A stretch of 64,000 nucleotides of DNA, taken from assembly GCA_038065475.1 (NCBI GenBank), contig JBBTQY010000001.1:26145-90144 (forward strand). Reading direction: 5' to 3'. The first letter of the stretch is position 1, and each line of letters starts with the position of its first letter. Below the pieces are notes generated by a model that had not been told where the DNA came from, made no database searches, and saw nothing but the letters and a program-made list of their open reading frames with translations. Positions 7,665 through 24,531 of the stretch are shown piece after piece. A program made the translations under genes and the position numbers. This stretch comes from Patescibacteria group bacterium (GTDB lineage Bacteria > Patescibacteriota > Minisyncoccia > Ryanbacterales > GWA2-47-10b).

Positions 7665-7678
7665 TATCATAACCTTAT

Positions 7679-7897: not shown

Positions 7898-7911
7898 TAA
7901 TACTCTGAGAA

Positions 7912-7948
7912 CAAAAAAAGCGTGACCCCATGTCACGCTTTTTTGTTT
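7912..7948 (+). terminator. rho-independent terminator after copZ
   Basis: Hairpin aagcgtgac-CCCA-tgtcacgctt followed by a TTTTGTTT run. Confidence 0.6.
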
Positions 7949-7966
7949 AGCCCAGCAGCACCGCGT

Positions 7967-8143: not shown

Positions 8144-8154
8144 AATAAGCAGAT

Positions 8155-10083
8155 TTAGTGCGCGTGCCCACCGCCACCCTGCATCATCGAGCCCCCTTCG
8201 GGTCCTTGAGTGACTGAAATATCAAAGGTGGTTGTATATACGTCACCCCCGCGCGAAAACTGCGCAAATGCCCTATAGAGGCCTGGGTACGGAAATGCAG
8301 CATGAACGTCAATGAGAGGGCCAAATACGGCGTCTGGGGGCACCTCATGGCCGTAGCCGGGTACCTCACCATGCGTATGGATAAAATAACCAAGATCATA
8401 ACTCCAGATAGCCAAATGCATGGGCGCCCCAAGATACGCGACCATGTCATTTACTGGAGTGCCATCGTCGTTAGTCATTGTGTATTCAAGATGTGCTGAT
8501 ACGCCTGATTGAATTTGCCCCGGATCAGTTTTGAGGTTTACCGTAAGGTCATCAAATTTTTCTTCGCGCATCAGGTTTTTTGTGATTGCAACCGGCTCCG
8601 GTTTGCCACCTGGCACTGTCACAATATTCTGCACCGTGCCTGCGTGCCCCTGGTGCAAAAATCCACTCGCCAGCGAATAGGTACCCGCCTTAGGAAATGT
8701 GACGTAGATAGGATATTCTCCCTTGGCACGCATCTCGTCAGTGATCTGACCGTAATCATCAGGATGCACATGCATAAATGTCTCAAGGTCTTCAGAGACA
8801 ATGATGACGTGCACCAAACGCTCATGCTCGATCTTGAGATCTTGCAATGGTGCGCCGTTCTCATCTTTGAGCGCGATAGTTATTCGGGTCAACTCGCCAG
8901 GCCTTGGCATCAGTGGATCAGTAGTAACCACACCTTGAAACGCTGGCGCAGTTTCCATATGAGTCGCATGAAATTGGAAATTATGAGGCAATACCCAGCC
9001 AAACAGCGTATAGAGACCAATGCCGAGCCAAATTACAAAACCCAAATAGGTGCGTGACGCGGCAACTTTCTGAGCACGCTCCGCCTCAAGAGCCTCGTGC
9101 GCTTCTTTGCGCTTTTTCCACCAAATCCAGACAAACGGTATGAGCCATATGGTGACCATAACGTAGCTGCCCAGCCATAAATTGTCTCCCAGAGGTAACT
9201 CGTGCGCATGACCCAATTGGCCAATATTTGACCCTAGCAAGCCCGTAATCGCCTCTTCTTGCGTCACGCTCTCCAGATATGTGTGGATGCCTGAATATAC
9301 ATACCAGTCATGAGTAAAGGTACCGAGGGTAAACAAAAATCCTGCGACAAAGACCATTGCCCATCCGGTCGTCTTCTCAACCTTGGTGCGGTGTTTTACC
9401 AAAAAGCCAGTAGCGTTGACCCCCAAGATTGCGTAAAACGTCAAAATAAAGAGCGGAGTGACGCGCCCGAGTGCTTGCACTACCATGATAAGCCAGCCCT
9501 GAAACGCGCTGCCGCTGACCAAAATCTGCGGGATGATCACGCCATTGAACAACGGATTGGGGCACCCAACACCCACATTGCCCAAAAAGAGACCGAGCAA
9601 AAATGCTTTGACATATTCCTGCTGCTTTTGGATAAAATCAGGAAACGCGCCACCGTAGGTAGGCATCTTGATACCTTTAAGACCTATATCATGAAATGCA
9701 AAAAGGAGCCCCATGGCACCTGCAAACATATACATCCAATTTTTTGCAGTCTCAGCGCTACCCAAAAAGGTTTGGCCGATAGCGCCCAAAAGCGCCCCGT
9801 AAAAACTGAGAGTAATCGTCACACCAGCGGCAAATGCAGCTGCAATACCAATGCCACGAATATATCCCTTGCCCATGGCGAGCGGCACTACCACGAATGC
9901 AAGCGGCAGCGTGCAGGGCAAAAAGATCATAGTGAGACCTACCGCATAGTCATATATATAGAAAAAGGCGCTGTCAGTAGTGGGTGCGGCAAAAAATACC
10001 CACCGGAGGCCGATGGCAAAAACTGCAGTCAGGATAACGGTAAGGACAAGAAGCGGAAGGCGCGTCTTTTGGCTTTCTTCCAT
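8155..10083 (-). CDS. CcdA/DsbD-like thiol-disulfide transporter fused to a duplicated His-rich periplasmic domain
   Basis: The N-terminal ~370 aa is polytopic and carries the two conserved Cys of the CcdA/DsbD family (FLPCTLPL in TM1, GVGCPNPLF). The C-terminal ~270 aa contains two related ~110-aa repeats with H-x-H motifs (FMHVHPDD, FIHTHGEVPGYGHE) and ends in GGGGHAH. Confidence 0.65.
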   Translation of the reverse strand: MEESQKTRLPLLVLTVILTAVFAIGLRWVFFAAPTTDSAFFYIYDYAVGLTMIFLPCTLPLAFVVVPLAMGKGYIRGIGIAAAFAAGVTITLSFYGALLGAIGQTFLGSAETAKNWMYMFAGAMGLLFAFHDIGLKGIKMPTYGGAFPDFIQKQQEYVKAFLLGLFLGNVGVGCPNPLFNGVIIPQILVSGSAFQGWLIMVVQALGRVTPLFILTFYAILGVNATGFLVKHRTKVEKTTGWAMVFVAGFLFTLGTFTHDWYVYSGIHTYLESVTQEEAITGLLGSNIGQLGHAHELPLGDNLWLGSYVMVTIWLIPFVWIWWKKRKEAHEALEAERAQKVAASRTYLGFVIWLGIGLYTLFGWVLPHNFQFHATHMETAPAFQGVVTTDPLMPRPGELTRITIALKDENGAPLQDLKIEHERLVHVIIVSEDLETFMHVHPDDYGQITDEMRAKGEYPIYVTFPKAGTYSLASGFLHQGHAGTVQNIVTVPGGKPEPVAITKNLMREEKFDDLTVNLKTDPGQIQSGVSAHLEYTMTNDDGTPVNDMVAYLGAPMHLAIWSYDLGYFIHTHGEVPGYGHEVPPDAVFGPLIDVHAAFPYPGLYRAFAQFSRGGDVYTTTFDISVTQGPEGGSMMQGGGGHAH

Positions 10084-10131
10084 GCGATTAGTATAGCAAG
10101 CCGCAAAGCAAAACCGCTTGTTGATAAAAAG

Positions 10132-10749
10132 TCACTTAGGCTTCGATTTATTGATAGCGTGGTCGTTCTTCACAATTATGTCTGCAAGAGGTAACTGTTT
10201 CTCTCGAAATGGCACATCCGGCCGATAGATGCCTATGTAGTAATCAGCCGCATATCTTGGCATTTCTTGTCGTTGGAATTTCTCTGTGAGACTCTCTGCC
10301 GTCCAGTCTATCTCTTCGCTAAAATAAACACTTTGAGGCTTGCTGCCAGGTTTTGTGTGTGCCTCACCAAGCTTGCGACGCTCAACATCTAAACCGGTAT
10401 ATGCATTTATAGAACCCCCTACAGGCACTCCTCTTTTCGCCAACTCTTCTACGAGGGTGCGCCTAAAAAACGATTTACCGACGTTGACGGAGCTACCGTT
10501 AATAACGACGATAATATCCTCTTTTGCCTTCTCATATACGCTACTCAGTGCATCTGCCGCCTCGTGTACGCCCGCCTCAAAGTCATATTCTCGGACTTCC
10601 TCTATCTTACTCACCACTCCACGAAAATCTCTCTCATAGCCAACATTCACCAACTCCTCCATGGGAATATCTTTGATATTCTTGTGTGCTGCGATCAACT
10701 CCTGAAGTCTTTGTGATTGCTCATCGAGAGCTGGCATTTGCTCGGGCAT
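10132..10749 (-). CDS. hypothetical protein (weak P-loop-like GSSVNVGKS segment)
   Basis: 205 aa. VVINGSSVNVGKSFF resembles a degenerate Walker A motif but is not canonical. Family unknown. Confidence 0.4.
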   Translation of the reverse strand: MPEQMPALDEQSQRLQELIAAHKNIKDIPMEELVNVGYERDFRGVVSKIEEVREYDFEAGVHEAADALSSVYEKAKEDIIVVINGSSVNVGKSFFRRTLVEELAKRGVPVGGSINAYTGLDVERRKLGEAHTKPGSKPQSVYFSEEIDWTAESLTEKFQRQEMPRYAADYYIGIYRPDVPFREKQLPLADIIVKNDHAINKSKPK

Positions 10750-10904
10750 GTTTTGATTATCGCCTAAAATCAGCGCAAATCAACATCAAACCTATCTAGG
10801 CTCGAGCTGGTTTAATTAGATTGCCCAAGGCGTCAGCGCGCAGCACGTGACAAACTCTACGCGCTTGATAAACCTTTTGAGAGATACTTGAGGGCTGATT
10901 AACA

Positions 10905-10960
10905 ATATAAAAAACTCCCCCGACAGTACTTTGCGCTTCGCGCATTTCCTGTCGGGGGTG
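10905..10960 (-). terminator. rho-independent terminator after the SPFH-like gene
   Basis: ctcccccgacag…ctgtcgggggtg inverted repeat (11 of 12 bp) with a nested gcgcttcgcgc hairpin, followed on the minus strand by TTTTTTATATT. Confidence 0.5.
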
Positions 10961-10984
10961 ATACTGTCGCCTGCTTGGCGAAGA

Positions 10985-11917
10985 CTACTGCTTCTCGGGC
11001 TGCTGATCCTGCTGCGGGACCGGCTTGATCTGCCCACGAAGGTACTCTGCTGCTACCAGCGAGTCTCCCAGGGGGCTCGCCTCACCCGTGATGATGAGCG
11101 TATTGGTGCCCGACTTGGAGCCCGTCTCGGCGATGCGTTCGAGCGACTCCCACTTCATGAAGGTCACGTACTCGGGGTTGGCACGGAGCGCGGCACCGAT
11201 GGCGTTGATGGCCGTCACCTTGGCGGCGGCTGACGCACTTTGGTTTTGCGCTCCCCATACCGTCTCGTCGGGCTTCACATTCGATAGCGAGACGTTCTGG
11301 AGGTCGAGCGGAACACCGTTGGCAGCAAAGGTATCCTTGACCATCTTGGCAATCTTGTCGTTGACCGCCTGATAGTCGGAGTACACGGCCTGGTAATCGT
11401 CGTAGCCCGCGAAGATGGCGCGCACCTTGCTGCGCACATCCATGCGAGCGAAACGATTGTAGACGTCTTCGACCGTGATGTAGCGGACGAGGACATCATT
11501 CTTGCCATCGCGCGGCGTGACGAGCGCGAAGACGTTGTTGCGCTGCTTGTTCGCATCGGTATTGCCACCCGGAATCACCGCCCTGATGTAGACGTCGACG
11601 GCGAGTGGCGTACCCTTGCGAGTCAGCACGCGGTGATCCTGCTTGTCTTCGTTGCCCACGGCATCAGGAGCCATGAACTGCTCTTTGACCAGCGTCGAGG
11701 TCGCCTCGAGTAGCACCAGCGTGTTGTAGGTGCCGTTGGCATTCGACTGCCCAAGGTCAACCTGACCCGCTTCGCGGATGTCATCCTCCCAACCAGTGGG
11801 CGTGAGTATGCGACCCACGAATCCTGCTGGGATCTCCTTGACATTGCTGCACGCGCTACCGAACAGCGCCAGCGCGATGACAATGCCAAACACAAGCCTC
11901 TTGATATCTCTCTGCAT
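10985..11917 (-). CDS. SPFH/band-7 (HflK/C-like) domain lipoprotein
   Basis: Signal peptide with a Cys near the cleavage site (LFGSAC). The C-terminal …AIGAALRANPEYVTFMKWESLERIAETGSKSGTNTLII… resembles the HflC/stomatin C-terminus. GC-rich gene with a strong SD (gaGGAGGGcatcATG). Confidence 0.5.
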   Translation of the reverse strand: MQRDIKRLVFGIVIALALFGSACSNVKEIPAGFVGRILTPTGWEDDIREAGQVDLGQSNANGTYNTLVLLEATSTLVKEQFMAPDAVGNEDKQDHRVLTRKGTPLAVDVYIRAVIPGGNTDANKQRNNVFALVTPRDGKNDVLVRYITVEDVYNRFARMDVRSKVRAIFAGYDDYQAVYSDYQAVNDKIAKMVKDTFAANGVPLDLQNVSLSNVKPDETVWGAQNQSASAAAKVTAINAIGAALRANPEYVTFMKWESLERIAETGSKSGTNTLIITGEASPLGDSLVAAEYLRGQIKPVPQQDQQPEKQ

Positions 11918-11930
11918 GATGCCCTCCTCT

Positions 11931-12233
11931 TCAGTGAGCGTTGGAGTGGGCGTCGCCGGCCCGATCTTCGAAGCGATCGATCTGCCGATTGACGTCGGTA
12001 CGGTCGATGACCGCGCGTGGCGTCACGTTGACGCTCGCGGCTGCGAAGAGCTGCCAGATGAAGGCGGCCATGAGGATCAGGCCAAGAATGTTGCGCCCTC
12101 TGCGGATGAACACCTTGACGTCATCCTCGACCTCGGGCTGGGTCAAGAAGACCCACGCGACGCCAAACACGAAGGCGAGCGCTCCGAGCGTGCCTAGCAC
12201 ACCTGGATGTGCCCATCTCAAGAAATCTTCCAC
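11931..12233 (-). CDS. small two-TM membrane protein, co-operonic with the SPFH-like gene (NfeD-like partner?)
   Basis: 100 aa, GTG start preceded by AAGGGAG. 13-nt gap to the SPFH-like gene. GC-rich. Confidence 0.4.
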   Translation of the reverse strand: MEDFLRWAHPGVLGTLGALAFVFGVAWVFLTQPEVEDDVKVFIRRGRNILGLILMAAFIWQLFAAASVNVTPRAVIDRTDVNRQIDRFEDRAGDAHSNAH

Positions 12234-12454: not shown

Positions 12455-12637
12455 CTACGACGACCGCAGCATGTCAAAACTGGGCAGTTCAATACCATAC
12501 CAACGAGCAACAAAAAATAGCAAACATACAGCGGCAATAAAGCAAACCAATACGATCAAAAATAGACCGCGCGGCTTGCCGCGTGCTGGTGGTTTTTCTT
12601 CTTCTAAATCATCAAGATTCCAAATTTCTTCTGGCAT
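12455..12637 (-). CDS. hypothetical small membrane protein
   Basis: 60 aa with one TM helix. Last gene downstream of GH6 on the same strand. Confidence 0.3.
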   Translation of the reverse strand: MPEEIWNLDDLEEEKPPARGKPRGLFLIVLVCFIAAVCLLFFVARWYGIELPSFDMLRSS

Positions 12638-12652
12638 ATAATAAATATATAA

Positions 12653-13885
12653 CTATTCAAAACGAAATGGCGAGTTTTTAATCATTTCGAGAGCTCTTTC
12701 CGTCCAAAATTTGCCCGTGGGTACCCCGCCGTTACATGGTCCATCGGATTCTCCTGGTAGTTTAACCCATAAAAGCGCATCTACAAGCACATTACCTGTC
12801 GTAGTAGTCGGCACCTTGCCTATAGTTACTCCAGGGGCATTACACCACTCTGTTTTATGCGGACCAGAACCATTGCGGCTCGTATCGATCACAAAGTGTT
12901 TATTACCAATAAGCGTGGAGACCTCTTGCCCAAAGGCAATCTCATCTGAAACGTACTGATAGTTAGAGACATTAAGAGCAAAGCCATCAGCCGAATCAAT
13001 GCCCGCTGTTTTAAGAAAATTAGCGATACTGCTCGCCTTGCGCCAATTGCTATGACCGGCATCAAGATATATTCGCGCTTTTGGCGCCTTGGCTCTCAGA
13101 GTCAAAATGGCTTTTTTGAGGTCCGCCAGACGGACAGCTTGGTCAGAATCACTCAAATTCGCAACAAGACCTATACTATCGGGCTCAAGGATGATCCAAG
13201 CATCATGATCTCCTATAGACTCAGCGACAGCGGTAACCCACTGAGCATAACTATCTCCCGCCGTTATGCCGCTCCAGTAACGTAGCGTTGTATGGTCAGG
13301 AATATTGTAAAGTACCAAAATAGGCATTTTACCTGCAGCTGTAGCCTTAGAAACAGTAGAAATTACGCGAGAACGAATAGTATCGAGGTTGTCGCCAATG
13401 ATCCATGTACCCTGAGGTCTACAAGAAATTTGCTGCAATAAATCAGCATCTGCTATATTGCCAGCGTTTCGTAATTCTTTCTCAACGCGAACTGCTTGCA
13501 TGGTGGGATCAACATAAAAATTTGTTGAATTTTTCGCGTATTCGCAGCTAAAAACCTTTTGTGGATTTGGTGGCGGGGGTGGGTTAACAACGACTACTGG
13601 AGGAGGAGTAGGGTTTACCGGTGGTGGAGGTGGGGAGATTGGTTTTGGCGGAGGCACAGGCAATACTGGTGGAGGAGGATTAACCACTTGAATGGGCGGC
13701 GGTACATTAGGTTGAGGAATTGTTGGTGGATTGGGAGAAATAACGACTGGAGGAATTTCTTCTTCTCTCTCCCAAGTTTGAGTCGTTTGTGTATACGTAG
13801 ATGCAAAAAGTACGAAAATAAAACCCGCAGCGATAAACACCACAGCAAGATACTGAATAAGCCCGCTTGTATTATCTCTTCCCAT
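12653..13885 (-). CDS. glycoside hydrolase family 6 (endoglucanase/cellobiohydrolase-like), membrane anchored with proline-rich linker
   Basis: N-terminal TM and a Pro-rich PPxP linker. Catalytic domain has the GH6 signatures AWIILEPDSIGL (cf. VIEPDSL) and DALLWVKLPGESDG (cf. WVKPGGESDG). Confidence 0.75.
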   Translation of the reverse strand: MGRDNTSGLIQYLAVVFIAAGFIFVLFASTYTQTTQTWEREEEIPPVVISPNPPTIPQPNVPPPIQVVNPPPPVLPVPPPKPISPPPPPVNPTPPPVVVVNPPPPPNPQKVFSCEYAKNSTNFYVDPTMQAVRVEKELRNAGNIADADLLQQISCRPQGTWIIGDNLDTIRSRVISTVSKATAAGKMPILVLYNIPDHTTLRYWSGITAGDSYAQWVTAVAESIGDHDAWIILEPDSIGLVANLSDSDQAVRLADLKKAILTLRAKAPKARIYLDAGHSNWRKASSIANFLKTAGIDSADGFALNVSNYQYVSDEIAFGQEVSTLIGNKHFVIDTSRNGSGPHKTEWCNAPGVTIGKVPTTTTGNVLVDALLWVKLPGESDGPCNGGVPTGKFWTERALEMIKNSPFRFE

Positions 13886-13890
13886 TATTC

Positions 13891-14619
13891 TTAGAATTTC
13901 CAGGCCTCCGAACGTTTTAAGGGAAAGGTGCGCCGATCACTATTGATAACGGTTTCAGCACGCTGAATGTCTTCCGGTGTTGATAGTGGATGCCAAAAAC
14001 TCGACGGCACCGCCATAATCTTTTTAGTTGCAAGCATTTGCCCAACAGCATGGGAAAGAAAATACTCACCAGTAGCGCTATGTACCTCGGGTGCGTAGTC
14101 AAAAACAGAATAATCGAGCAGCAAAACTCCCGTACTCACCATATTTGTTTTTGGATACAACGGTTTTTCTTCAATATCTCTAATATGGCCTGCGCGATCA
14201 ACTTCAACTACACCGTATGGGCGAGGATCATCGACCTCAGCAACTAAAAGAGCTCTATCATATTTTAAACACTCTTTAAATCCATCTGCTCCATGCAAAT
14301 CGTCGGCGAAGACAACAAAAAAGCGCTCGCCAGGCGACAAAAGATGCTTGGTCTTTTCTAGGGCTTTATATGTACCCTTGATCTCATCATCGCCCACATA
14401 GGTGACACGACGCCCCAAAAAATAATCTCCACAATATTCACGAATCATATCGCCGAGATATCCGACAACGATAACCAACTCATCCACCTGGCGTGGGAGC
14501 TGAGAAACCACATGCTCAATAAGGGCCCTTTTATTTACTTCGACAAGCGGCTTGGGCCTTTCAAGAGTTAAGGGGCGCATACGCGTCCCCTTGCCTGCCG
14601 CCAGAATAATTGCTTTCAT
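13891..14619 (-). CDS. sugar-phosphate nucleotidyltransferase (RmlA/GalU-like)
   Basis: MKAIILAAGKGTRMRPLTLERPKPLV is the canonical NTP-transferase N-terminus. Short (242-aa) form. Confidence 0.8.
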   Translation of the reverse strand: MKAIILAAGKGTRMRPLTLERPKPLVEVNKRALIEHVVSQLPRQVDELVIVVGYLGDMIREYCGDYFLGRRVTYVGDDEIKGTYKALEKTKHLLSPGERFFVVFADDLHGADGFKECLKYDRALLVAEVDDPRPYGVVEVDRAGHIRDIEEKPLYPKTNMVSTGVLLLDYSVFDYAPEVHSATGEYFLSHAVGQMLATKKIMAVPSSFWHPLSTPEDIQRAETVINSDRRTFPLKRSEAWKF

Positions 14620-14629
14620 GTTCGATCAA

Positions 14630-15505
14630 TCAAAACGGAATAGCCTTATAATCATCAAACGACACATCCATAAAATCCGTACGGATGCCCGCATACCCCT
14701 CTTTGACGATTGGGCTTACTCCGTACTTTGATCCTGTATCTTTTGCTTCCAATACTAGCGTCCAAGTGCCAGTTTTGCCTTTATCCATAAAAAGCTTTAT
14801 CGCGACACTGCCATCAGCATTATTTTGCGATTCACTGCGAAGGCCTATCCAAACATTTTTTGGCAATAAATTTGGATTTGTATCTCGATTATAGATGCCT
14901 GGAAATATTTTTTTATAGGCAATCGTGTGGTAAGTGCCATTTTGCTTCTTTTTGATAACCGCCGCTCCATCAACACGAGTACCTACGTAATACAGGTTAT
15001 TACCATCTTGATAGCGATTAAAAAGAAGAAGACCATTAGACGCGTCACGATTTGGGCTTTTACTCAGATTGTCTTTGTTGATCTTAAAATATGCTTCCTG
15101 CTTAAAATTGCCCCATTTGGAACGCGTTAACAAACGAAAAATGTTTTGCGGATGATACCCATTATCTGTATCGACAGGATTGGAGCTACTATAAATAAGA
15201 CGCCACTTATCAATAATGGATAAATTACCATCTATAGTTTTTCCAACTCCATCAACAATATGTAAGTAAGCACCGGAATTTAACCACCAATACGGACTAG
15301 AACTATAATCCATCTGCCCACTCTCCACTAATTTGCCGGGAACATTAAAAGTATAAACAAAATTAGAAGTAATAATCGCTGACGGTGTCTTTAACTCTGC
15401 AGCTGACAGTAAAGCTAAGCCCAATGTATTATCAAAATAATACTGACTAATGCCCGCAAGAATAAAAGATATTAACAATAACAAAATAAAAATTGGTCTT
15501 TTCAT
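14630..15505 (-). CDS. secreted hypothetical protein in the EPS operon
   Basis: Signal peptide. 291 aa, β-rich and Asn/Tyr-rich. 4-bp overlap with the deacetylase gene. AT-rich. Confidence 0.5.
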   Translation of the reverse strand: MKRPIFILLLLISFILAGISQYYFDNTLGLALLSAAELKTPSAIITSNFVYTFNVPGKLVESGQMDYSSSPYWWLNSGAYLHIVDGVGKTIDGNLSIIDKWRLIYSSSNPVDTDNGYHPQNIFRLLTRSKWGNFKQEAYFKINKDNLSKSPNRDASNGLLLFNRYQDGNNLYYVGTRVDGAAVIKKKQNGTYHTIAYKKIFPGIYNRDTNPNLLPKNVWIGLRSESQNNADGSVAIKLFMDKGKTGTWTLVLEAKDTGSKYGVSPIVKEGYAGIRTDFMDVSFDDYKAIPF

Positions 15506-17118
15506 AGTAATTTCTCAACAATTAATTGATTAACGATCACCTCGCTGTTGTTTTCAACAGGATCCCATACTTTAAACCCTATACCACCGCGATCTAAAGA
15601 GGAATCCAAGGAATCTACAGACAAAAGCTCTTCGCCATCAATAAAGCACTTTATGGTGTTCTTGTGAACGGACAACTCGAAGGTGGCATTATCCCAAGAA
15701 AAATTCTGATCTATGGAAGTTTCGGCGATCTTCTTTCTTTCTCCGTTTATAGATTCATCTATACGAATAAAACGTCCAGAGACATTACAAGAAGTAAAAT
15801 TTTTACTATCTTTATATCGCGCGACCAGAGATAGCGATTCTCCTCTCGTCCAATCAATTAATGCCTTCAAATGATAATTTTCCCAATTACGCGTACCGTC
15901 TAAAACAACAGCAGCACCCGTTGTTTTTTCTCCTGCGCGCAAAACTAGCGAAGAATTCTTTAATCCTATGTTTCCCCATTCCTTTATCCATTCCTCATTA
16001 AGAGAAAAATCATAAATATGTAAAGGTATTTCTTTAGACCGCCCCGCATTCAATACCCTTAATAAGTCTGCATCTGTCCATGCTCCTCCAACATCTATAC
16101 GCTTAACTAAAAAAGTATTGTCGTCAAAATAATTTTGAGTAAAACCAGCACTAGGATATGTTTGGAAAAATGCTAAATCATAATTATCTTTAACTGAATT
16201 GAGCAAAACCCTTTGGGCCTCGGGATAATTTGTTATATTTTGGGCAAAGTCACCATAAGGAAAAGCGAAAGAAACAGAAGCTATATCCAAAACTCTCTCA
16301 ATTTTTTCCTTAACTAAGCTTATATCATGCCCGATACGTTGCTCATATTCATCATCTGTCTCTAATCTTCCAAGCTCTTTCAACCAAAGTTTATTAGTAT
16401 AATAGTGTCCCTGTTCGCCGTTTATAGAGATTGATTGAAAAACATGGCCACTATCGGCATGTGCTTGAATCTCCCAACGTCCACTGCGCTTCATCGCCCG
16501 TAGTTCATTAGCATTTAGATAATAAGAACTTTTTCTATCACTATCAGTCAACGAATGGCCACTGATAATAAAAGTGACAGCATTATAATCCAATGCTCTC
16601 AAAATGGGATCGACTGGGTAGTAACTTGACTTCGCTCCATCATCAAACGTTAATAAAAATGATTTATTCGGTAGGGTCTTTTCACCCTTAACGAAGGAGT
16701 TAAAATCCTCGACACTTATAGTTTTCCAGCCAGCTTGTTTGAGCGCAAACATCTGAGCCTCAAAATTCGTTTTCGTAATATTTTCTCCATCAGGGATGTC
16801 TACAAGGCCGTGGTAAAGAAGCACGGGTACAGACTCCGCGGTACCCGTAACAACGACGTTTTCTACTGTTGATCTATTTGAGAATATTCTCGCTAGACTG
16901 CCGAGCATATCATTCTCCGCATAAGCCAATTTTGCAGCATAAAAGCCATAAGCTGCAGTTTCTTTGCTATCCAAAATCATTCCGTCGGTAAATTGGGATA
17001 AACTCTCCCTAATGAACAAGAAGGCATAACTGCCACAAAAAAGTAATATAGCAATTACGGTAACTCGCAAAACCTTTAATCTTGAAAAATCTAAATATTT
17101 CATTATCGAGTTCCCCAT
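15502..17118 (-). CDS. polysaccharide deacetylase (CE4/NodB-domain) with C-terminal β-rich domain, membrane anchored
   Basis: N-terminal TM. NodB-type motifs (LLTFDDGAKS, …HADSGH). A ~250-aa C-terminal extension gives a PgaB-like overall layout. Confidence 0.75.
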   Translation of the reverse strand: MGNSIMKYLDFSRLKVLRVTVIAILLFCGSYAFLFIRESLSQFTDGMILDSKETAAYGFYAAKLAYAENDMLGSLARIFSNRSTVENVVVTGTAESVPVLLYHGLVDIPDGENITKTNFEAQMFALKQAGWKTISVEDFNSFVKGEKTLPNKSFLLTFDDGAKSSYYPVDPILRALDYNAVTFIISGHSLTDSDRKSSYYLNANELRAMKRSGRWEIQAHADSGHVFQSISINGEQGHYYTNKLWLKELGRLETDDEYEQRIGHDISLVKEKIERVLDIASVSFAFPYGDFAQNITNYPEAQRVLLNSVKDNYDLAFFQTYPSAGFTQNYFDDNTFLVKRIDVGGAWTDADLLRVLNAGRSKEIPLHIYDFSLNEEWIKEWGNIGLKNSSLVLRAGEKTTGAAVVLDGTRNWENYHLKALIDWTRGESLSLVARYKDSKNFTSCNVSGRFIRIDESINGERKKIAETSIDQNFSWDNATFELSVHKNTIKCFIDGEELLSVDSLDSSLDRGGIGFKVWDPVENNSEVIVNQLIVEKLL

Positions 17119-18389
17119 CTAGAATCGCGAATAGTTATCATCGCCCAAGGCAGTTGCCACATAAGCATCACTGTATAAAACCAAAAAGTCATCACGGACA
17201 AAAACCAAGCACGCGGACCCACTTGAGTACGATAATAAATCCCGTGCAATAATAACATTAAGAATAAACCAGCCAAATAGGCGAGAGGAATGCTTCCTGT
17301 CAAATACGGATGCCAAATAACAGCCCTTATAAAAACAATGGGCGCACTAAGGGCAAGAATGACATAGGAATAATACGATAGAGCAGCAAAAAAATTTTTA
17401 CGCCACATAAACGCGCTGGCAATTAGCGTCTCTCTAATCCAAGATTTTTTCCATCTCTGCTGCTGTTTAATATATTTACCAAGCGTATCTGGCACAACTG
17501 TGTGCGCCTTTGCTTCTGGAGAATAAACAGCTTCATATTTTCGAATAATAAAATTTGTTAAACTTCTGTCATCACCGAATGTACACTCACTTCCTAAGAA
17601 CCTCTGATTTAGCCAAACGTCAATAAACTCGAGTAAATACTCTCTACGATATGCAGAACAACAGCCGGGACAGCAAGTTACATTACCAAAAACGGATTCA
17701 GCTGCCTTATAAACACTAAAAGCGATAAAATATCTTGTGGCCTGCATCTGTGTTAAAAGATTTGTATCTCTATTAAAAACATCTGTATGCCCAGAGACAG
17801 CTCCAACTCTCGGATTAGAAAAATATTTTACAAGATGCTTGACACAATCAGGGGCAATAAAACTATCCGAATCAATAAATATAACTATTTCATGGTTTGC
17901 CCTTCTTACCCCTTCTGCCATACCTGCTCTTTTACCGCGATTAACTTTCCAATTAACAACGGTAACTGGTATTTCTTGACCTATCTCCTTTTTAATTTTC
18001 AACATCTCAGCATAGGTACTATCTGTTGAGCCATCATTAATAGCAATAATTTCTATTTTTTCTTTAGGATAATCCGCATGCAAAAAGCGCCTAATCGTCT
18101 CAGCAACATTATCTTCTTCGTTTTTTGCTGGAACAACAAAAGTGATTGAAGGCTGATAGCCCTCATCATGCTTAATAGATCTATGGAAATATGCAAGAAA
18201 AAATCTTGAAATAATATAAATAAAAATTAAAATACTATAGAATTTAAAAAAGGTTACCCCCCCGACAAAGCTAGTCGTGCTAATTTTAAATAAAAGTATC
18301 AAATAGAGCACAACAAAAAAAAGAAACCAAAAACCAAAATCACTAAATACTGCGAGCCTTTTTTTAATTTTATTAAAAATTTTTGCCAT
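17103..18389 (-). CDS. processive family-2 glycosyltransferase (PgaC/HasA/cellulose-synthase-like synthase)
   Basis: Two N-terminal TMs, then a GT-A domain with DGSTD and DSDS motifs and QQQRWKKSW (QxxRW), then C-terminal TM helices. Confidence 0.8.
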   Translation of the reverse strand: MAKIFNKIKKRLAVFSDFGFWFLFFVVLYLILLFKISTTSFVGGVTFFKFYSILIFIYIISRFFLAYFHRSIKHDEGYQPSITFVVPAKNEEDNVAETIRRFLHADYPKEKIEIIAINDGSTDSTYAEMLKIKKEIGQEIPVTVVNWKVNRGKRAGMAEGVRRANHEIVIFIDSDSFIAPDCVKHLVKYFSNPRVGAVSGHTDVFNRDTNLLTQMQATRYFIAFSVYKAAESVFGNVTCCPGCCSAYRREYLLEFIDVWLNQRFLGSECTFGDDRSLTNFIIRKYEAVYSPEAKAHTVVPDTLGKYIKQQQRWKKSWIRETLIASAFMWRKNFFAALSYYSYVILALSAPIVFIRAVIWHPYLTGSIPLAYLAGLFLMLLLHGIYYRTQVGPRAWFLSVMTFWFYTVMLMWQLPWAMITIRDSRWGTR

Positions 18390-18391
18390 AC

Positions 18392-19690
18392 CTATCGCCC
18401 TATACCATTGTAGATAATATTGGAGTCCAAAAATATATCTTTTTCTAGACAGTTACGCCCGTCTACAATTGTTCTGACTCCATATTTTTTTAGATCATCA
18501 GGAGTAAGTTTCTTGAAAATGCTATGTGCGGTGGCGACGATAACACCGATTGATCCCTGTAAGGCTTCCTCTAAAGTTTTTACATCTGAACGATCAAGTA
18601 CAAATGGATCATAGGCAACCACCTCTGCTCCAAACTCTTTCAAAATTTTAATAATCTCAAACGATGGGCTCTCGCGACAATCATCAATATCTGCCTTATA
18701 TGAAAGTCCCAATACAGCTATGCGTGACCCATTGATAGCAATCTTCTTTTCATTGAGTCCTGCGATCAATTGCTCAACGGCGAAATGGGGCATGCCGTTG
18801 TTTATACGGCGAGCGAGCGCCAAAAAATCATGATCGAAACCATTCTTTTTTGCATACTCAATAAGATAATACGGATCAACAGGTATACAGTGTCCGCCTA
18901 CACCGCAGCCTGGATAGTGAGGCATAAAAGCAAAGGGCTTGGTGGCTGCGCCATCAATTACATTTACTACATCAATGCCGAGGCGTGAGAATGACCGCGC
19001 GAGTTCGTTTACAAATGCAATATTGATATCTCGAAAAGAATTCTCAACAACTTTAACTGCCTCTGCCTCTTTGAGGTTTCCCATCGGCTTTACCGTGCCA
19101 GTCAAAATTGATTCATAAAATGCCACGGCCTTTTTGAGTCCTGCCTCATCAAAGCTGCCAACAACGCGCGGTATATTTTCCACGTTCCATTTTTTATCAC
19201 CCGGATTGATACGCTCAGGACAGTGTGCCAAAGAAAAATCTTTACCACACTCCATGCCGGAGATTGATTCGAGTATCGGTAATACCACGCTCTCTGAAAC
19301 TCCCGGGTTCACTGTTGACTCTAAGATAACTAAGGTATCTTTTTGAAGATACGGAGCAATCGAGCGCACGGCATTTTCCACCGGCTCAAGATTTGGCATA
19401 TGATTTTCATACACCGGTGTTGGTACGCAAATAATCACAATGCCGCAATCTTTAACTACAGAGAAATCATGGGTGGGTGTAAATGAAACTTCCTGCAAAG
19501 CCTGCTCAATCGCCTCATCCTGTATTGGGGATTTCTTTTGTTTTAAGAGCTCTATCTTCTGCTGGCTGACATCTATGCCAAAAACCTCATAGCCCTTGCG
19601 GGCCGCAAGCAAAACAAGCGGAAGACCCACATACCCAAGGCCTACAACCGCTATTTTTTCCTTATCTGGTAATGTTTTTTTGGCCTCCAT
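18392..19690 (-). CDS. nucleotide-sugar dehydrogenase (UDP-glucose / UDP-N-acetylhexosamine 6-dehydrogenase family)
   Basis: N-terminal Rossmann motif IAVVGLGYVGLPLV, central catalytic Cys region, and a C-terminal UDP-binding domain. Confidence 0.85.
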   Translation of the reverse strand: MEAKKTLPDKEKIAVVGLGYVGLPLVLLAARKGYEVFGIDVSQQKIELLKQKKSPIQDEAIEQALQEVSFTPTHDFSVVKDCGIVIICVPTPVYENHMPNLEPVENAVRSIAPYLQKDTLVILESTVNPGVSESVVLPILESISGMECGKDFSLAHCPERINPGDKKWNVENIPRVVGSFDEAGLKKAVAFYESILTGTVKPMGNLKEAEAVKVVENSFRDINIAFVNELARSFSRLGIDVVNVIDGAATKPFAFMPHYPGCGVGGHCIPVDPYYLIEYAKKNGFDHDFLALARRINNGMPHFAVEQLIAGLNEKKIAINGSRIAVLGLSYKADIDDCRESPSFEIIKILKEFGAEVVAYDPFVLDRSDVKTLEEALQGSIGVIVATAHSIFKKLTPDDLKKYGVRTIVDGRNCLEKDIFLDSNIIYNGIGR

Positions 19691-19955
19691 AGTTGGCCTA
19701 GTTTACAATAAAATAATAAAAGAGTCAATAGCTCCCTAGAGTATAGAGAACCATTTCCATTAACAATAACGTTCTAACTGGGGTTGTGTGATGATAACAC
19801 CGCCATCCACCTACTAACTAAGCCTCGTTCGCTTAAGATTTATTACAACCCTATAAACTTATACAACAAAAAGAATTCTTAAAAAGAATACGGTCAGGCC
19901 CAGAAAAAACATTGCGGTCAAAACTGATACTTGCGCCTGTTGAGACATATAATAT

Positions 19956-22900
19956 TTAGAGTTGTGTAATGCTGGCGGCGTTATTTACCCACTGATAGAG
20001 CCCTGTCCAGTTGAGTTTAATAACGCCAACCGCTACGCGATAGGTGCCTGGGCCTGGCGGCGTAAATTCATAGTTAAACACACGAGACTCACCTGCTTGC
20101 AAGGTTTCGCCATTGTAAAATTCTTGGAATACTTGCGTGCCTCCAGCGTCGTACACTTCAAGATTGAGTACTACATGACCGGGTTGAGTGCCGGTATTTT
20201 GAAGGGTCACATCGATATCACGCATACCGGACGCTCCAGTGACCACTGTACTCGCGTGTGTGGGCACAAAATCGGTCATCGGCGTGGTAGATCCGCCCAA
20301 TGACCATGCAGGGTCATTTACATCAACATCCGCCGTTGAACCAAATCGCCCATGGTGACCACTATTTGATCGATCGATAATATCTTGCCCGAAGTTTTCA
20401 TTGAACTTCCAGTATTTGATAAGACCAATCTGAGAGCCGATAAGAGGTTGACCGAGCGTCGCCAAAATATCATCATCTGCACGCACAATATTCCAAACAC
20501 GCATATCCTCGAGAACACCTTTAAATCCCCTTGCGGAATGATCCGCAGGATTGCCGCCGATCACCACAGGAGCTGACGTTTGTGCGATATTGCCCGTTTT
20601 CGGCACCGTTGCGACCACCGCTCCATTTTTATAGAGCCGCATCGCAGCACCGTCATAGCGCGCAGCAATGTGCGTAGTCTCGTTGAGTCCAAATGAACCG
20701 CCAACAAGTTTTGTGACTACACCGTCAGTATTAAGCCTAAAAACAAATTGATTTTGATCATTCACCCCGATAGACCAAACATAATCATTGTCAGTAATAC
20801 CTGTAGCCTTCGCGAGTAGGTCTGCGTTGCGACCAAGCTCTGACGCCTTAAACTCGGCCTCGAAAGTAAAGGTGGGCTCTTCTACGTCCCACACTCCGAT
20901 ATCGACATAATCATTTACACCGTCAAAAACGAGCGCGCCATCGTTATTCGTTGGTATAACAGAAGGTACACTCGCGCAATCGCCAAACCCCTCTGCTGGA
21001 TAACTAAAGATAGCCGTATTATCACCCCACTTATTTTTGACCCATGATGCAGGTCCGGGTGTTTCAAACGATGGATTCTTTACAAGATTGGAAGTATCAT
21101 TACCCTCCTTGCGTACATAAAACTGATCAACAGTTAATGAGCCGACACCATCAATAATATGGAAAAAAGTAACCGTACCTGTATTTGGGGGCGTCAGTAT
21201 AGATGCAGTGGCATCTTGCCATGTTGCTGCGGCGGGCAAAGTACCAAGCCCTCGATATTGTACCGATCCGTCATGCATTCTAAGCACCGCAACAATACGC
21301 GTTGGTACAGTTGCCTTATATTTATCTGAAAAATAATAAGTTAAATCTGATGCAACTACTAACGGCTCGTGATACCACTTGGCATCACCAGTCACATATT
21401 CAGTGATCTCAACTTTCGCTCCACGAACGGTGCAGGCTTCTATTTTTTCATATTCAAAGTTAACGAGTGCAGCGTATGCATTTTCATAGTATTCAAGCTT
21501 CATCGTATGGATTCCGGGTGTCATTTGATGAGTAACAGTATAAGTTGTCGCTGCCTGATCATGCCACTCATCTATGACAAGAACATCATCAACATAAAGC
21601 CGCACACCATCGTCAGCTGTTACAGTAAATTGATAAGTTGCGTCTTCAAAGTCTGCTTGCTTTATCCAGCGCGCTGAGAACCGGTCTGGTTGGATAAGTG
21701 CATGCGGAGAATTAAGCCCCCAATCAAAATTGATCGAGGCATCTTGCTGTACAACGCTCGGAGCTCCGCTCAGATTTATGTTATTGAAATATGATGCGCA
21801 AAATTCATCAGCACCGACGACACCCGATACCGGATAAGAAAAAGTTACCGTATTATCGCCCCAACTATTCTGAGCCCAGTTATCTGATCCTCCCTCTTCA
21901 AATGACCAATCGCTAATAAGATTATTTTCTTGATCTGATATATCGTAAAGTTCATAAGCATCCACTTCCAAAAACCCTACAGATCGAATGAGATGAAAAA
22001 TAGAAATACGTTGAGCATCCTCGGGTACAAAAAACGTTTTTTCGTTTTTTGTCCAGGTGTCAGACGGCGCCACTTCTCCTAACCAGCGGTACAAAAACGT
22101 TCCGTTGGTCAGACGGATTTGCAAAATTAAAGTTGAGGAAACATCTGATCGAGAGTAATTAGAAAAATTATATAATCCAGCGCCTGGCACAACATCTACC
22201 TCTTTCATGCGCCACTTGGCGTCACCGGACGTATATGCCGACATATCAATGCGAGCTGCCTTCGCGCTACAAATATCTTTCTTGGCATACGCAAGTTTTG
22301 CGACCGCCGCAAAACCATTTTCATAATATTCCATACGAATAGTATGGAGCCCCGGAGTGATTGAGCGCTCAACGGTATGAGCTGTCGCTGCTTGATCGTG
22401 CCATTCATCTATGATAGCGACATCGTCAATAAAGAGGCGCACGCCATCATCAGCATTTACCGTGAACTCATATAGCCCTCCATCAAAATTTTCTTGTCGC
22501 GTCCAACGAGCAGAAAAATGGTCATCAGGAATTACAGGATTCGGTGAACCAAGCCCCCAATCAAAATTGATCGAGGCATCACTACGCGTAAGAGCTGGCG
22601 TACCTATCGGCGTTTGAGTATTATAATACTCGCCGATAAAACCATTCGAAGCATCAACTAATCCTATATTAATACTTTTCTTCACAGAAAGACCTTGGGA
22701 ATCTGTTGCTGTTAAAGCAAGCTCGAAATATGTATCACTACCATGATCAGGAACGACGAAGCTACCAGACTCGCCCGTCATATCTAATAGAGGATGGTTA
22801 TGACACGTGCCAAACGGACAATGATGAACAATAACCACCCACTGAAGACTGCCCCCAGCAAGGGCACCGTCCTCAAGGTCACTGGCGGATCCGGAAAAAT

Positions 22901-24497
22901 TCAATGTATCACCTTGATGTACTGATGTTCCGTCAGTTGGAGCGATGATTGTCGCTGTAGGCTGATGATTGCCTGGCTGAATCTGCACAGAAGCCGAACC
23001 GGCTGCATTAAAGCTATCGGTGACAGTTAATGTTACGTTAAATATGCCAGCTGTCGTATATGTATATGTTGGATTTGCCTCTTCAGAGGTTGCCCCGTTA
23101 CCAAAATCCCAATGATAACTAATAGTATTTCCATCTTGGTCGGAAGATCCAGCGCTTGAAAAATGTACAGTCATTGGTACAGAGCCGCCTACTGCATCGG
23201 TAGAAATTTTTGCTGTGGGGGCATGATTATCGCTCGAGTAACGCACGCGCACAATCTCATCAGGATAAATAGAAACATAATAAAGATGCCCATCCGGCCC
23301 CATGGTGATATCCACCGGTGTTGCAACCTGCTGACTAAAAATCTTGTTACTATCAGGAACAAGGTTATTTAAATCGTCCAACCTTAAGGTACGCATTTCA
23401 TTGCGGCCGTAATCACTGAAAAAGAAAGAGCCCTGATACTCAGCCGGGAACTCTGTACCGGTATAAAAAGTACCACCAACTACCGCAGCTCCCGGCGGAT
23501 GATTATACGTATAGAGAGGTTTTGTATCTCCGCCTGCCGCATAAAAATCTTGGCACGCACCCATAAAATGATACCCCTCCTGCTGCTCGTCTCCCTCCCA
23601 ACATGGCCATCCATAATTGCCACCTGGAGTAATAACGTTGATTTCTTCAATAGCCGACCAGCCAACATCGCCTACAACAAGAGTGTTCGTACCAGGCTTA
23701 ATATTAAAACGGTATGGATTGCGAAACCCATATGCCCATACTTTTGAGCGATTTTCGTTTGGATCGCCAGTATAAAAAGGGTTTGATTCAATACCGGTGC
23801 CGTCTGTATTAATGTGTAAAATTTTACCCGCCAAACTATCAAGGTTTTGGGTACGCAACGCAAGCGGATCTACTGTCGTGAATGACGAGGCGTCACCTGA
23901 ACTGACAAAAAGAGTACCATCATCGGCAACCCGAACAGATCCAATAGTATGGCTTGGGGAGTCGCTCGGAATACAATCAGCACCTACGGGAAGATCTTCG
24001 CAAGACGCGGCACTAGCCGTCCCTAAGATGATCGTTTCACTGCCAGGTAGAGCAACATCGCCATCAGCGACAACACGAGAAAGACGACTTGTTTTAGTGC
24101 CAGTGTAATCATCGGGATTATTTTCATAAGTATAGAGTAGATAAATAAAATGGTTCGTCTCAAAGTCCTTATCAAAGGCAAGATCAAGTAAACCACGATC
24201 ATTATAATCATTGACGTGTGAGAGAGTGATAAATGGCGTAGGTAAAACAACACCATCCTTTACAACTTTCACCACTCCTCCCTTTTCCACCACAAACATT
24301 CGGCCATCGGGAGCAAAGCGTGTCGCTACGGGCAAATTAAAACCAGAGGCTACAGACTCAAGGTAAAAACCTGCTGGCAAATCAGTTGCCGCAGCACCCC
24401 ACGATACGGGGATGAAATGCCAAACACTCAAGGCTAAAAAAAGCCCGAGAACTATAGATATTTTTACTTTTATGGATTTCGTTTTCATGCTTAGCAT
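19956..24497 (-). CDS. giant secreted multidomain surface protein: GSDH-like β-propeller + PKD + 2×(PA14 + β-sandwich) + LamG/ConA-like + CARDB-like
   Basis: Signal peptide MKTKSIKVKISIVLGLFLALSV. GSDH motifs (VASGFNLPVATRFAPDGRMFVVEKGG). PKD domain (…YHWDFGNGATS…). Two PA14 domains (…DHFSARWTRQ…DDGVRLFIDDV and …DRFSARWIKQ…DDGVRLYVDDV). LamG-like and CARDB-like C-terminus. The ORF track extends to 24593, but the signal peptide begins at the internal Met (24488/24497), which also removes the overlap with the upstream GT39 gene. Confidence 0.8.
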   Translation of the reverse strand: MLSMKTKSIKVKISIVLGLFLALSVWHFIPVSWGAAATDLPAGFYLESVASGFNLPVATRFAPDGRMFVVEKGGVVKVVKDGVVLPTPFITLSHVNDYNDRGLLDLAFDKDFETNHFIYLLYTYENNPDDYTGTKTSRLSRVVADGDVALPGSETIILGTASAASCEDLPVGADCIPSDSPSHTIGSVRVADDGTLFVSSGDASSFTTVDPLALRTQNLDSLAGKILHINTDGTGIESNPFYTGDPNENRSKVWAYGFRNPYRFNIKPGTNTLVVGDVGWSAIEEINVITPGGNYGWPCWEGDEQQEGYHFMGACQDFYAAGGDTKPLYTYNHPPGAAVVGGTFYTGTEFPAEYQGSFFFSDYGRNEMRTLRLDDLNNLVPDSNKIFSQQVATPVDITMGPDGHLYYVSIYPDEIVRVRYSSDNHAPTAKISTDAVGGSVPMTVHFSSAGSSDQDGNTISYHWDFGNGATSEEANPTYTYTTAGIFNVTLTVTDSFNAAGSASVQIQPGNHQPTATIIAPTDGTSVHQGDTLNFSGSASDLEDGALAGGSLQWVVIVHHCPFGTCHNHPLLDMTGESGSFVVPDHGSDTYFELALTATDSQGLSVKKSINIGLVDASNGFIGEYYNTQTPIGTPALTRSDASINFDWGLGSPNPVIPDDHFSARWTRQENFDGGLYEFTVNADDGVRLFIDDVAIIDEWHDQAATAHTVERSITPGLHTIRMEYYENGFAAVAKLAYAKKDICSAKAARIDMSAYTSGDAKWRMKEVDVVPGAGLYNFSNYSRSDVSSTLILQIRLTNGTFLYRWLGEVAPSDTWTKNEKTFFVPEDAQRISIFHLIRSVGFLEVDAYELYDISDQENNLISDWSFEEGGSDNWAQNSWGDNTVTFSYPVSGVVGADEFCASYFNNINLSGAPSVVQQDASINFDWGLNSPHALIQPDRFSARWIKQADFEDATYQFTVTADDGVRLYVDDVLVIDEWHDQAATTYTVTHQMTPGIHTMKLEYYENAYAALVNFEYEKIEACTVRGAKVEITEYVTGDAKWYHEPLVVASDLTYYFSDKYKATVPTRIVAVLRMHDGSVQYRGLGTLPAAATWQDATASILTPPNTGTVTFFHIIDGVGSLTVDQFYVRKEGNDTSNLVKNPSFETPGPASWVKNKWGDNTAIFSYPAEGFGDCASVPSVIPTNNDGALVFDGVNDYVDIGVWDVEEPTFTFEAEFKASELGRNADLLAKATGITDNDYVWSIGVNDQNQFVFRLNTDGVVTKLVGGSFGLNETTHIAARYDGAAMRLYKNGAVVATVPKTGNIAQTSAPVVIGGNPADHSARGFKGVLEDMRVWNIVRADDDILATLGQPLIGSQIGLIKYWKFNENFGQDIIDRSNSGHHGRFGSTADVDVNDPAWSLGGSTTPMTDFVPTHASTVVTGASGMRDIDVTLQNTGTQPGHVVLNLEVYDAGGTQVFQEFYNGETLQAGESRVFNYEFTPPGPGTYRVAVGVIKLNWTGLYQWVNNAASITQL

Positions 24498-24531
24498 TAC
24501 TAGGATATTCTTAGCACACAACAAGCCCCCA

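Follow-up and report, generated by a model that had tools for sequence, protein, structure and literature searches.

What kind of polymer is made by a gene cluster that places a hyaluronan synthase-like glycosyltransferase between a sugar dehydrogenase and a polysaccharide deacetylase? The question is raised by a 64,000-nucleotide stretch of contig JBBTQY010000001.1 (positions 26,145 to 90,144; hereafter "the window"), which exact matching assigns to a 347-kb contig of a Patescibacteria metagenome-assembled genome from Hainich aquifer groundwater (ENA ERZ1292624). A first-pass annotation had described one seven-gene exopolysaccharide operon in this window and had proposed that it makes an undescribed, partly deacetylated, uronic-acid-containing β-glycan with its own trimming hydrolase. 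The seven minus-strand open reading frames (ORFs) are all present with the spacing described, but only four of them form a conserved unit. This four-gene cassette would use its synthase to make a partly de-N-acetylated polymer for the cell surface, based on N-acetylglucosamine (GlcNAc), probably with N-acetylglucosaminuronic acid (GlcNAcA), a reading that we hold with moderate confidence from gene order, motifs and clade placement. The features of the locus are as follows.

18392-19690, minus strand: dehydrogenase (DH), 432 aa; predicted cytoplasmic nucleotide-sugar 6-dehydrogenase, UNGD/TviB/WbpA-like; first gene of the conserved core.
17103-18389, minus strand: GT2 synthase, 428 aa; membrane-embedded, processive-type, of the hyaluronan synthase (HAS)/NodC/chitin-synthase superfamily.
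15502-17118, minus strand: CE4, 538 aa; membrane-anchored, putative PgaB-like polysaccharide de-N-acetylase (533 aa if the alternative start at 17103, that of the gene caller, is used).
14630-15505, minus strand: U291, 291 aa; membrane-anchored, with an extracytoplasmic ConA-like/CBM66-like β-sandwich; unannotated family; fourth core gene.
13891-14619, minus strand: NTP-transferase, 242 aa; predicted cytoplasmic sugar-1-phosphate nucleotidyltransferase; lineage-specific accessory.
12653-13885, minus strand: GH6, 410 aa; N-terminal transmembrane (TM) segment, Pro-rich linker and GH6 domain; lineage-specific accessory.
12455-12637, minus strand: 60-aa ORF with one hydrophobic segment; membership of the system doubtful.
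19691-19955, minus strand: intergenic region of 265 bp upstream of the DH gene, with a hairpin and a weak -35/-10 match.

The delimitation of the core comes from related genomes. An alignment of the synthase was scanned against one genome per GTDB species, by which 495 relatives were confirmed; 80 loci were fetched, and the window's proteins were searched against their six-frame ORFs, with counts taken over those loci that have room for the neighbor in question. CE4 follows GT2 in 68 of 71 loci, U291 follows CE4 in 55 of 65, and DH lies directly upstream of GT2 in 44 of 71. The corresponding figures for the closest family are 39/40, 35/37 and 29/38, and the more distant relatives are mostly without DH (2 of 12 carry it). 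The GT2 family as a whole comprises 694 clusters (50% identity) at E ≤ 1e-30. DH-GT2-CE4-U291 is a conserved four-gene core, to which the NTP-transferase and GH6 genes are a lineage-specific extension present in few loci, and the 60-aa ORF is strain-specific. The real support for a functional unit is synteny, which covers four of the seven genes and no more. The synteny check proposed in the first-pass annotation therefore upholds the four core genes and leaves out the other three, and the single seven-gene operon is not sustained.

Within the window the genes are tightly packed. DH and GT2 are separated by 2 nt, the overlap of GT2 with CE4 is 16 nt, or 1 nt if CE4 starts at 17103, CE4 shares 4 nt with U291, and the downstream gaps (U291/NTP-transferase, NTP-transferase/GH6, GH6/60-aa ORF) are 10, 5, and 15 nt. 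The earlier domain calls agree with Pfam throughout (UDPG_MGDP_dh ×3, Glycos_transf_2/Chitin_synth_2, Polysacc_deac_1, NTP_transferase, Glyco_hydro_6), and the 291-aa protein has no family match. The core genes are presumably co-transcribed; their shared direction is weak evidence for an operon, since about three-quarters of the long ORFs in the window lie on the minus strand. A promoter scan of the window performed at chance (22 sites against 19.9 expected) and is uninformative on operon structure. Upstream of the DH gene, a 12-bp hairpin followed by Ts (19755-19727) precedes a weak -35/-10 match (19728-19700), so that transcription could begin within 19691-19955, a suggestion from a consensus scan that overall was no better than chance.

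GT2 carries the motifs NDGSTD, DSDS, CCPGCC, GDDRSLTN, and QQQRWKKSW and has the C-terminal end RWGTR. Hydropathy places TM segments at 18-36, 47-65, 336-354, and 363-381, that is, two N-terminal and at least two C-terminal. Its best PDB match is the chlorovirus hyaluronan synthase (CvHAS; 7sp6/7sp7, E 2e-34), with a match that reaches through the C-terminal membrane region, followed by Xenopus HAS1, and annotation pipelines label the family "hyaluronan synthase". NodC is the top NCBIfam match, aligned end to end (TIGR04242, 185 bits against a cut-off of 550); PgaC (TIGR03937) scores 142 against 422 bits, also under its cut-off, and Pfam Chitin_synth_2 gives 94 bits. When reference sequences taken from plasmid records and the PDB alignment were compared, DSDS, GDDRxLTN, QQxRWxKS(W/F), and a C-terminal WGTR proved common to GT2, Bacillus anthracis HasA, and the chlorovirus enzyme; NodC has GEDR and WLSR, PgaC TEDI, and BcsA TEDC in their place. 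GT2 is 33% identical to the pXO1 HasA over the core, 35% (three-sequence alignment) or 28% (aligned core) to the chlorovirus HAS, and 24% to Escherichia coli PgaC.

A neighbor-joining (NJ) tree recovers the GT2 family as monophyletic in 100/100 bootstraps; it includes sequences of the Candidate Phyla Radiation (CPR), several diderm relatives, and a Paenibacillus plasmid gene. The family groups with HasA, CvHAS, and NodC, excluding both PgaC and a second synthase-like protein of the window (GT2b, described below), in 96/100 bootstraps. Grouping with HasA alone is recovered in 6/100 bootstraps and with HasA and CvHAS in 21/100, so that a place inside the HAS clade is not supported. On these motifs and this tree, GT2 is best placed as a processive-type, membrane-embedded synthase of a distinct clade with HAS-like motifs, nested in neither HAS nor NodC. 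The processive character proposed at first is thus borne out by the D/DSD/GDDR/QQxRW/WGTR motifs, the flanking TM helices, and the HAS/NodC grouping. The description "PgaC/HasA-like" can be kept for its second half, as a clade beside HAS and NodC, and not for PgaC, which both the profile score and the tree set apart. When 10 of the 150 best representatives of the 50% clusters were looked up, those with names were all bacterial and none was eukaryotic or viral. The same GT2 alignment found no relative among the IMG/VR viral contigs, a scan with patescibacteria-specific patterns that says little about chloroviruses.

The nature of the acidic sugar depends on DH. NCBIfam and PDB matches both rank N-acetylhexosamine (HexNAc) dehydrogenases far above UDP-glucose dehydrogenases (TviB 254 bits, which does not reach its cut-off of 592; TuaD 158; Ugd 76). 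Against plasmid genes, DH scores 223-274 bits with those annotated as UNGD/TviB, 156-184 with WecC, and 114-157 with UGD/HasB; it is 42% identical to a Rhizobium UNGD and 27% to the pXO1 HasB. In an NJ tree, the cassette dehydrogenases join UNGD/TviB to the exclusion of UDP-N-acetylmannosamine dehydrogenases (P. horikoshii 4r16, Cap5O, and two WecC) in 199/200 bootstraps and of UDP-glucose dehydrogenases and HasB in 200/200. There is no UDP-GlcNAc 2-epimerase gene in the cassette. DH is therefore inferred to be UDP-GlcNAc 6-dehydrogenase-like, with UDP-GlcNAcA as its likely product. Since it groups with the UDP-GlcNAc 6-dehydrogenases, the expected acid sugar would be GlcNAcA and not glucuronic acid (GlcA). 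The earlier comparison of synthase plus dehydrogenase with hasAB fails at this gene.

CE4 consists of an N-terminal helix, a CE4 domain with PgaB-like fold and motifs (~99-370), and a CBM66/lectin-like β-sandwich (~377-536). Its best sequence and fold matches are the deacetylase domains of PgaB, BpsB, and IcaB. The first-pass annotation had already called a CE4 deacetylase with an extra C-terminal domain, and that domain can now be described as lectin-like. U291 has no Pfam family match and is 13-20% identical to CBM66/ConA-like lectin domains, without a family match at the sequence level. It resembles the CBM66 of the Bacillus subtilis levanase SacC and differs from it in being a stand-alone, membrane-anchored protein; it carries an additional sub-domain at its N terminus and is unusually rich in invariant charged residues. 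The idea that U291 is a paralogue of the C-terminal domain of CE4 was set aside: the fold is shared, but hhalign gives only 50% probability and homology is not proven. A PADLOC search with the window's unknown proteins gave no match. One N-terminal anchor is predicted for each of CE4, U291, and GH6, and none for DH or the NTP-transferase.

The cassette also occurs in archaea. Four loci carry DH, GT2, and a deacetylase with U291 alongside (in L175 at 6207-10822 and in L177 at 6159-10849), and archaeal ribosomal proteins on the same contigs show that these loci, labeled archaeal, really belong to DPANN archaea. L014 encodes ribosomal L10P with the archaeal/eukaryotic insertion domain (RL10P_insert) and L1 (3705-5479); L047 (5539-6120) and L177 (11296-12794) encode L31e, S19e, and an L-type RNA polymerase subunit; and L175 encodes L1, L10P, and Ribosomal_60s (1717-3421). 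L177 comes from the same aquifer project as the window. The archaeal GT2s are 54-76% identical to that of the window, and the archaeal deacetylase is shorter (304-315 aa) and DUF2334-related. The tree scatters the archaeal synthases over at least three positions among the patescibacterial ones, which indicates repeated inter-domain transfer of the cassette.

In the window itself, composition also sets the core apart. The segment 14630-19690 has 38.8% GC, against 45.2% for 12455-14619 and 48.3% for the remainder of the window, so the AT-richness noticed at first is real, and its boundaries coincide exactly with DH-GT2-CE4-U291; the lowest-GC 5-kb stretch of the 64 kb begins at 14901. Since cassette GC tracks the flanks in 60 relatives (median difference -0.005), the low GC in the window is not intrinsic to the cassette. 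It suggests a comparatively recent lateral arrival of the core. A specific source in low-GC DPANN archaea was considered and rejected, since in NJ trees the window and its nearest relative (L003) stand beside a Woesearchaeota pair in only 31/200 bootstraps (16/200 at full length). No tRNA gene that might serve as an integration site was found in the window.

Downstream of the core, the NTP-transferase matches the NCBIfam families Arch_glmU (164 bits) and AglF (145 bits), and is a functional analogue of HasC. It lies between U291 and GH6 only in the window and in two metagenomic loci, L083 and L086; neither L003 nor any of the other 79 genome loci has it. Homologues of the 60-aa ORF occur only in L001 and L002, whose genes match those of the window exactly; it has no family match and no counterpart after GH6 in L083 or L003. 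This small TM protein was considered as a PgaD/IcaD-like partner of the synthase and rejected for its lack of conservation in related loci.

GH6 was identified beyond doubt by its domain profile (PF01341, 171.7 bits against a cut-off of 27), which settles the profile test suggested in the first-pass annotation, and the membrane anchor joined through a Pro-rich linker (49% proline) is present as described. Its PDB matches are Thermobifida fusca E2 and Mycobacterium tuberculosis CelA1 (~195 bits). The EPD, DAGHS, and PGESDG motifs are retained, and IILEPDSIGL aligns with T. fusca IIVEPDLISL, which holds the catalytic acid D117. However, where the family has V-x-Y-x2-P-x-R-D-C the window protein has VLYNIPDHTTL, and the putative base Asp is lost. 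This residue corresponds to TfCel6A D79 and TrCel6A D175, the putative base reached via a water wire; its mutation cuts activity 100- to 1000-fold, although in TfCel6B the corresponding mutant was 10% more active on carboxymethyl-cellulose (PMC6091422). A canonical cellulase can accordingly be discounted, since the R-D-C motif with the putative base is missing. Compared with the endoglucanases T. fusca Cel6A/E2 and M. tuberculosis CelA1, the protein has lost R-D-C, is membrane-anchored, and is linked to a HexNAc-type and not a cellulose synthase. Its place at the end of a synthase operon resembles that of BcsZ (GH8), AlgL, and PslG.

The distribution of GH6 parallels this change. Of the 80 genome loci only one has it, that of the nearest relative, L003, where it comes immediately after U291. 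Scanning metagenomes with the GH6 domain added two linked loci, L083 (U291-NTP-transferase-GH6) and L086 (CE4-U291-NTP-transferase-GH6), and the remaining GH6 relatives are at most 45% identical and lie in unrelated contexts. GH6 is thus tied to U291 in four independent loci (the window, L003, L083, and L086), on the same strand, with or without the NTP-transferase. In an alignment of 83 sequences from the fetched loci, all four cassette-linked GH6s have P-D-H-T/N-T-L in place of P-x-R-D-C-G, and about 55 ordinary relatives that span the region retain R-D-C. By this alignment, the cassette-linked GH6s form a specialized subfamily. They could act as slow hydrolases or as binding proteins or, more speculatively, be adapted to a substrate with its own charged group. 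The R-D-C region is missing from the alignment in a divergent GH6 group as well, found on soil metagenome contigs of 63-69% GC (L149-L162), which keeps EPD, DAGHS, and PGESDG and could represent either another base-less lineage or an artefact of the alignment.

The window contains a second synthase-like module, on the minus strand and 8 kb upstream of the cassette synthase. GT2b (26130-27704, 524 aa) is a relative of PgaC and BcsA (64 bits with E. coli BcsA), and its partner (24532-26133, 533 aa) combines about 10 TM segments with a PMT_2-like region; in L003, too, the two adjoin the cassette. In L072, a PMT_2-GH8 fusion lies directly upstream of GT2-CE4-U291, the GH8 being carried on the partner of a GT2b homologue. 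Because a homologous module is present in the window, GH6 could serve the polymer of GT2b. A further glycanase is found in L163, a Paenibacillus cellulositrophicus megaplasmid (NZ_CP045296), in which CE4, a 625-aa GT2 (43% core identity to that of the window), a second CE4, and GH18 follow in a row at 4487-12117. It appears that different lineages recruited different glycanases, GH6, GH8, and GH18; all of these act on β-1,4 gluco-configured chains, and this argues modestly for a β-1,4-linked backbone of HexNAc and hexosamine.

How does the system compare with those already known? Clusters of UNGD, a chitin/hyaluronan-synthase-like GT2, and a polysaccharide deacetylase have been reported in chloroviruses, phaeoviruses, and fungi, the fungal examples being Wangiella, Fusarium CHS8, and Trichoderma chs8-cda1-UNGD, with UDP-GlcNAcA as the presumed precursor (PMC4059230, PMC5122149, PMC7053769). 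Here, too, and in most relatives, genes of these three enzyme classes lie side by side in one orientation. By enzyme class, this UNGD-CHS8-CDA cluster would be the closest described analogue; the version in the window differs in being prokaryotic and operonic, in having U291 as a fourth conserved gene, and in the CBM66-like domain of its CE4. The combination is therefore not wholly undescribed, and full-text literature searches found no paper describing the cassette in Patescibacteria/CPR.

Class I HAS systems (hasABC; hasA-galU-hasB on pXO1) share GDDR, QQxRW-KS, WGTR, a length of ~420 aa, and TM helices on either side, as well as a sugar dehydrogenase and, here, a nucleotidyltransferase within one operon; unlike them, the window has a GT2 of a separate clade, an UNGD-type DH, a nucleotidyltransferase of GlmU-N/AglF type and not GalU, and added deacetylase and lectin-like proteins. 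The poly-N-acetylglucosamine (PNAG) systems pgaABCD/icaADBC make a HexNAc polymer by a synthase with a tethered CE4, as is proposed for the cassette. Here, in contrast, GT2 is not of PgaC type (GDDR versus TEDI), a CBM66-like domain stands where PgaB has GH153, DH is present, and no PgaD/IcaD-like partner is conserved. NodC/NodB also pair a GT2 of this superfamily with a CE4, with GEDR/WLSR instead of GDDR/WGTR, a NodB-like instead of a PgaB-like CE4, and a nodA-type acyltransferase that has no counterpart here. The window system thus departs from HAS, PNAG, and NodBC in at least one defining feature each. A large protein of tetratricopeptide repeats (TPR) is a diderm hallmark of synthase-dependent export (cf. 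PgaA, BcsC). As in synthase-dependent secretion generally, the window pairs GT2 with an anchored CE4, and the Desulfovibrio and Aminicenantes relatives have, after GT2-CE4, a TPR protein of 1565-1625 aa, which resembles PgaA. No PilZ, GGDEF, or similar domain that would indicate a cyclic di-GMP receptor was found in any of the seven proteins.

A pathway can be proposed on this basis. In the cytoplasm, DH would turn part of the UDP-GlcNAc pool into UDP-GlcNAcA. GT2 would polymerize UDP-HexNAc, probably together with the uronic derivative, and pass the chain through its own channel. Outside the membrane, the tethered CE4 would strip some of the N-acetyl groups while its CBM66-like domain holds the polymer, and the tethered U291 would bind, retain, or otherwise process it. 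In the sub-lineage of the window, the NTP-transferase may boost precursor supply, and the tethered GH6, without the canonical base Asp, may trim or release the chain, presumed to be β-1,4-linked. In this sense, the partly deacetylated, uronic-acid-containing β-glycan first proposed still appears the best reading. The DPANN locus L175, in which glmS lies 1.6 kb from U291, also speaks for the proposal. Several points weigh against the proposal. DH is not adjacent to GT2 in ~38% of loci (27/71), so the uronic component may be optional, and its clade placement comes from NJ trees with few references that are partly named by annotation. HAS, chitin synthase, and NodC are indistinguishable by sequence, so that linkage and substrate number are not set, and the best matches of CE4 act on β-1,6 PNAG and not on β-1,4 chains. 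GH6, finally, may serve another polymer, with GT2b 8 kb upstream, or be catalytically impaired.

If the dehydrogenase fed a different glycan and were only loosely linked, the product could be a plain chitin/chitosan-like homopolymer or chito-oligosaccharides of NodC/NodB type. NodC as the best NCBIfam match, the Chitin_synth_2 score, the chitinase-family GH18 gene joined to GT2-CE4 in the Paenibacillus relative, and the loci without DH beside GT2, above all among distant relatives, would fit this alternative. We nevertheless consider it unlikely, because 29/38 loci of the closest family have DH next to GT2 in the same orientation, 2 nt away in the window, because the dehydrogenase-synthase-deacetylase triad recurs in DPANN as well as in chloroviruses and fungi, implying a functional link, and because GT2 has GDDR as in HAS and not the GEDR of NodC. 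Genuine hyaluronan (GlcA-GlcNAc), with DH as a UDP-glucose dehydrogenase and the NTP-transferase as HasC, is very improbable. The HAS-type motifs, the HAS enzymes as best solved-structure matches, and the pipelines' label all invite that interpretation, and the three genes mimic hasB/hasA/hasC; but DH sides with HexNAc dehydrogenases, apart from UDP-glucose dehydrogenases and with HasB as outgroup, in every bootstrap, at 27% identity to the pXO1 HasB, and GT2 is not nested in HAS (6/100 with HasA). Moreover, has operons are without a de-N-acetylase or lectin-like partners, and the NTP-transferase is not conserved with the cassette.

A separate matter is whether GH6, and perhaps the NTP-transferase, belongs to the system at all. 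It might act at the surface as a cellulase on foreign or host cellulose, or trim the product of the GT2b module, and its absence from nearly all genome loci, the GC of both genes near that of the host and unlike that of the core (45.8% for the NTP-transferase gene against 38.8%), and the true endoglucanases among its nearest PDB relatives are in keeping with such a role. The resemblance of GT2b to BcsA/PgaC and the GH8 (the BcsZ family) fused to a GT2b-type partner in L072 point the same way. We regard this as somewhat unlikely, since GH6 directly follows U291, or U291 and the NTP-transferase, on the same strand in four independent loci, since exactly these four copies have lost R-D-C, a specialization tied to the cassette, and since ~12 kb separates GH6 from GT2b.

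Other genes adjoin the cassette in the window and its relatives. Directly upstream of it lies a 1545-aa secreted protein (19956-24593, minus strand) with GSDH, PKD, two PA14, and Laminin_G_3 domains; the L003 homologue abuts GT2, pieces related to it flank U291 in L008, L021, L074, and L075, and a Laminin_G_3 protein adjoins U291 in the archaeal loci L175 and L176. L003 also has a gene for a clan GH-A hydrolase (16872-17882), with weak GH42/GH5/GH10 profile matches, 1.8 kb downstream of its cassette-linked GH6. Among the 80 genome loci, 24 have an OmpR-type response regulator and a histidine kinase beside the cassette, in most cases upstream and in the same orientation (e.g., L005:6533-8312), which points to two-component control; five loci have instead an extracytoplasmic function (ECF) sigma factor and a DUF5667 protein downstream. 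Neither pair is present in the 64-kb window. Elsewhere in the window, which has 47% GC overall, there are GC-rich outliers: an SPFH/Band_7-like gene (10985-11917, 59.8% GC, GC3 77.5%), two ORFs without a Pfam match (27822-29019, within a 1-kb bin of ~61% GC), and a 667-aa ORF, also without a match (51052-53055, within a 1-kb bin of ~57% GC).

Almost nothing is known of the surface chemistry of Patescibacteria and DPANN archaea, abundant and mostly uncultured organisms whose presumed way of life is attachment to host cells. A far-reaching and decidedly speculative proposal, which we think quite unlikely to hold in full, is that a zwitterionic, β-linked, partly de-N-acetylated poly-(GlcNAc/GlcN/GlcNAcA), in which GlcN is glucosamine, is an undescribed major envelope or attachment polymer of Patescibacteria and DPANN episymbionts, made by a cassette exchanged across domains. 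That cassette would be the prokaryotic counterpart, perhaps the source, of the chlorovirus/fungal UNGD-CHS8-CDA cluster. U291 and the C-terminal domain of CE4 would then constitute a new carbohydrate-binding or processing family, and the base-less GH6 would be neo-functionalized, with a carboxylate or amine of the substrate replacing the Asp.

The interest of the cassette lies in its breadth across ultra-small bacteria and archaea, its unannotated partner family, its base-less GH6, and its link to the chlorovirus/fungal cluster. A widespread, unannotated lectin-like family (U291) and a GH6 without the putative catalytic base are both worth biochemical study, for which the Paenibacillus relative, whose host is a cultured Firmicute, may be experimentally tractable. 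The four small genes would provide a compact bacterial model for the unsolved product of the UNGD-CHS8-deacetylase cluster of chloroviruses and fungi. Present in most of the sampled Parcubacteria-type genomes and on archaeal contigs, the cassette is a testable candidate for the machinery of a major surface or attachment polymer of these organisms.

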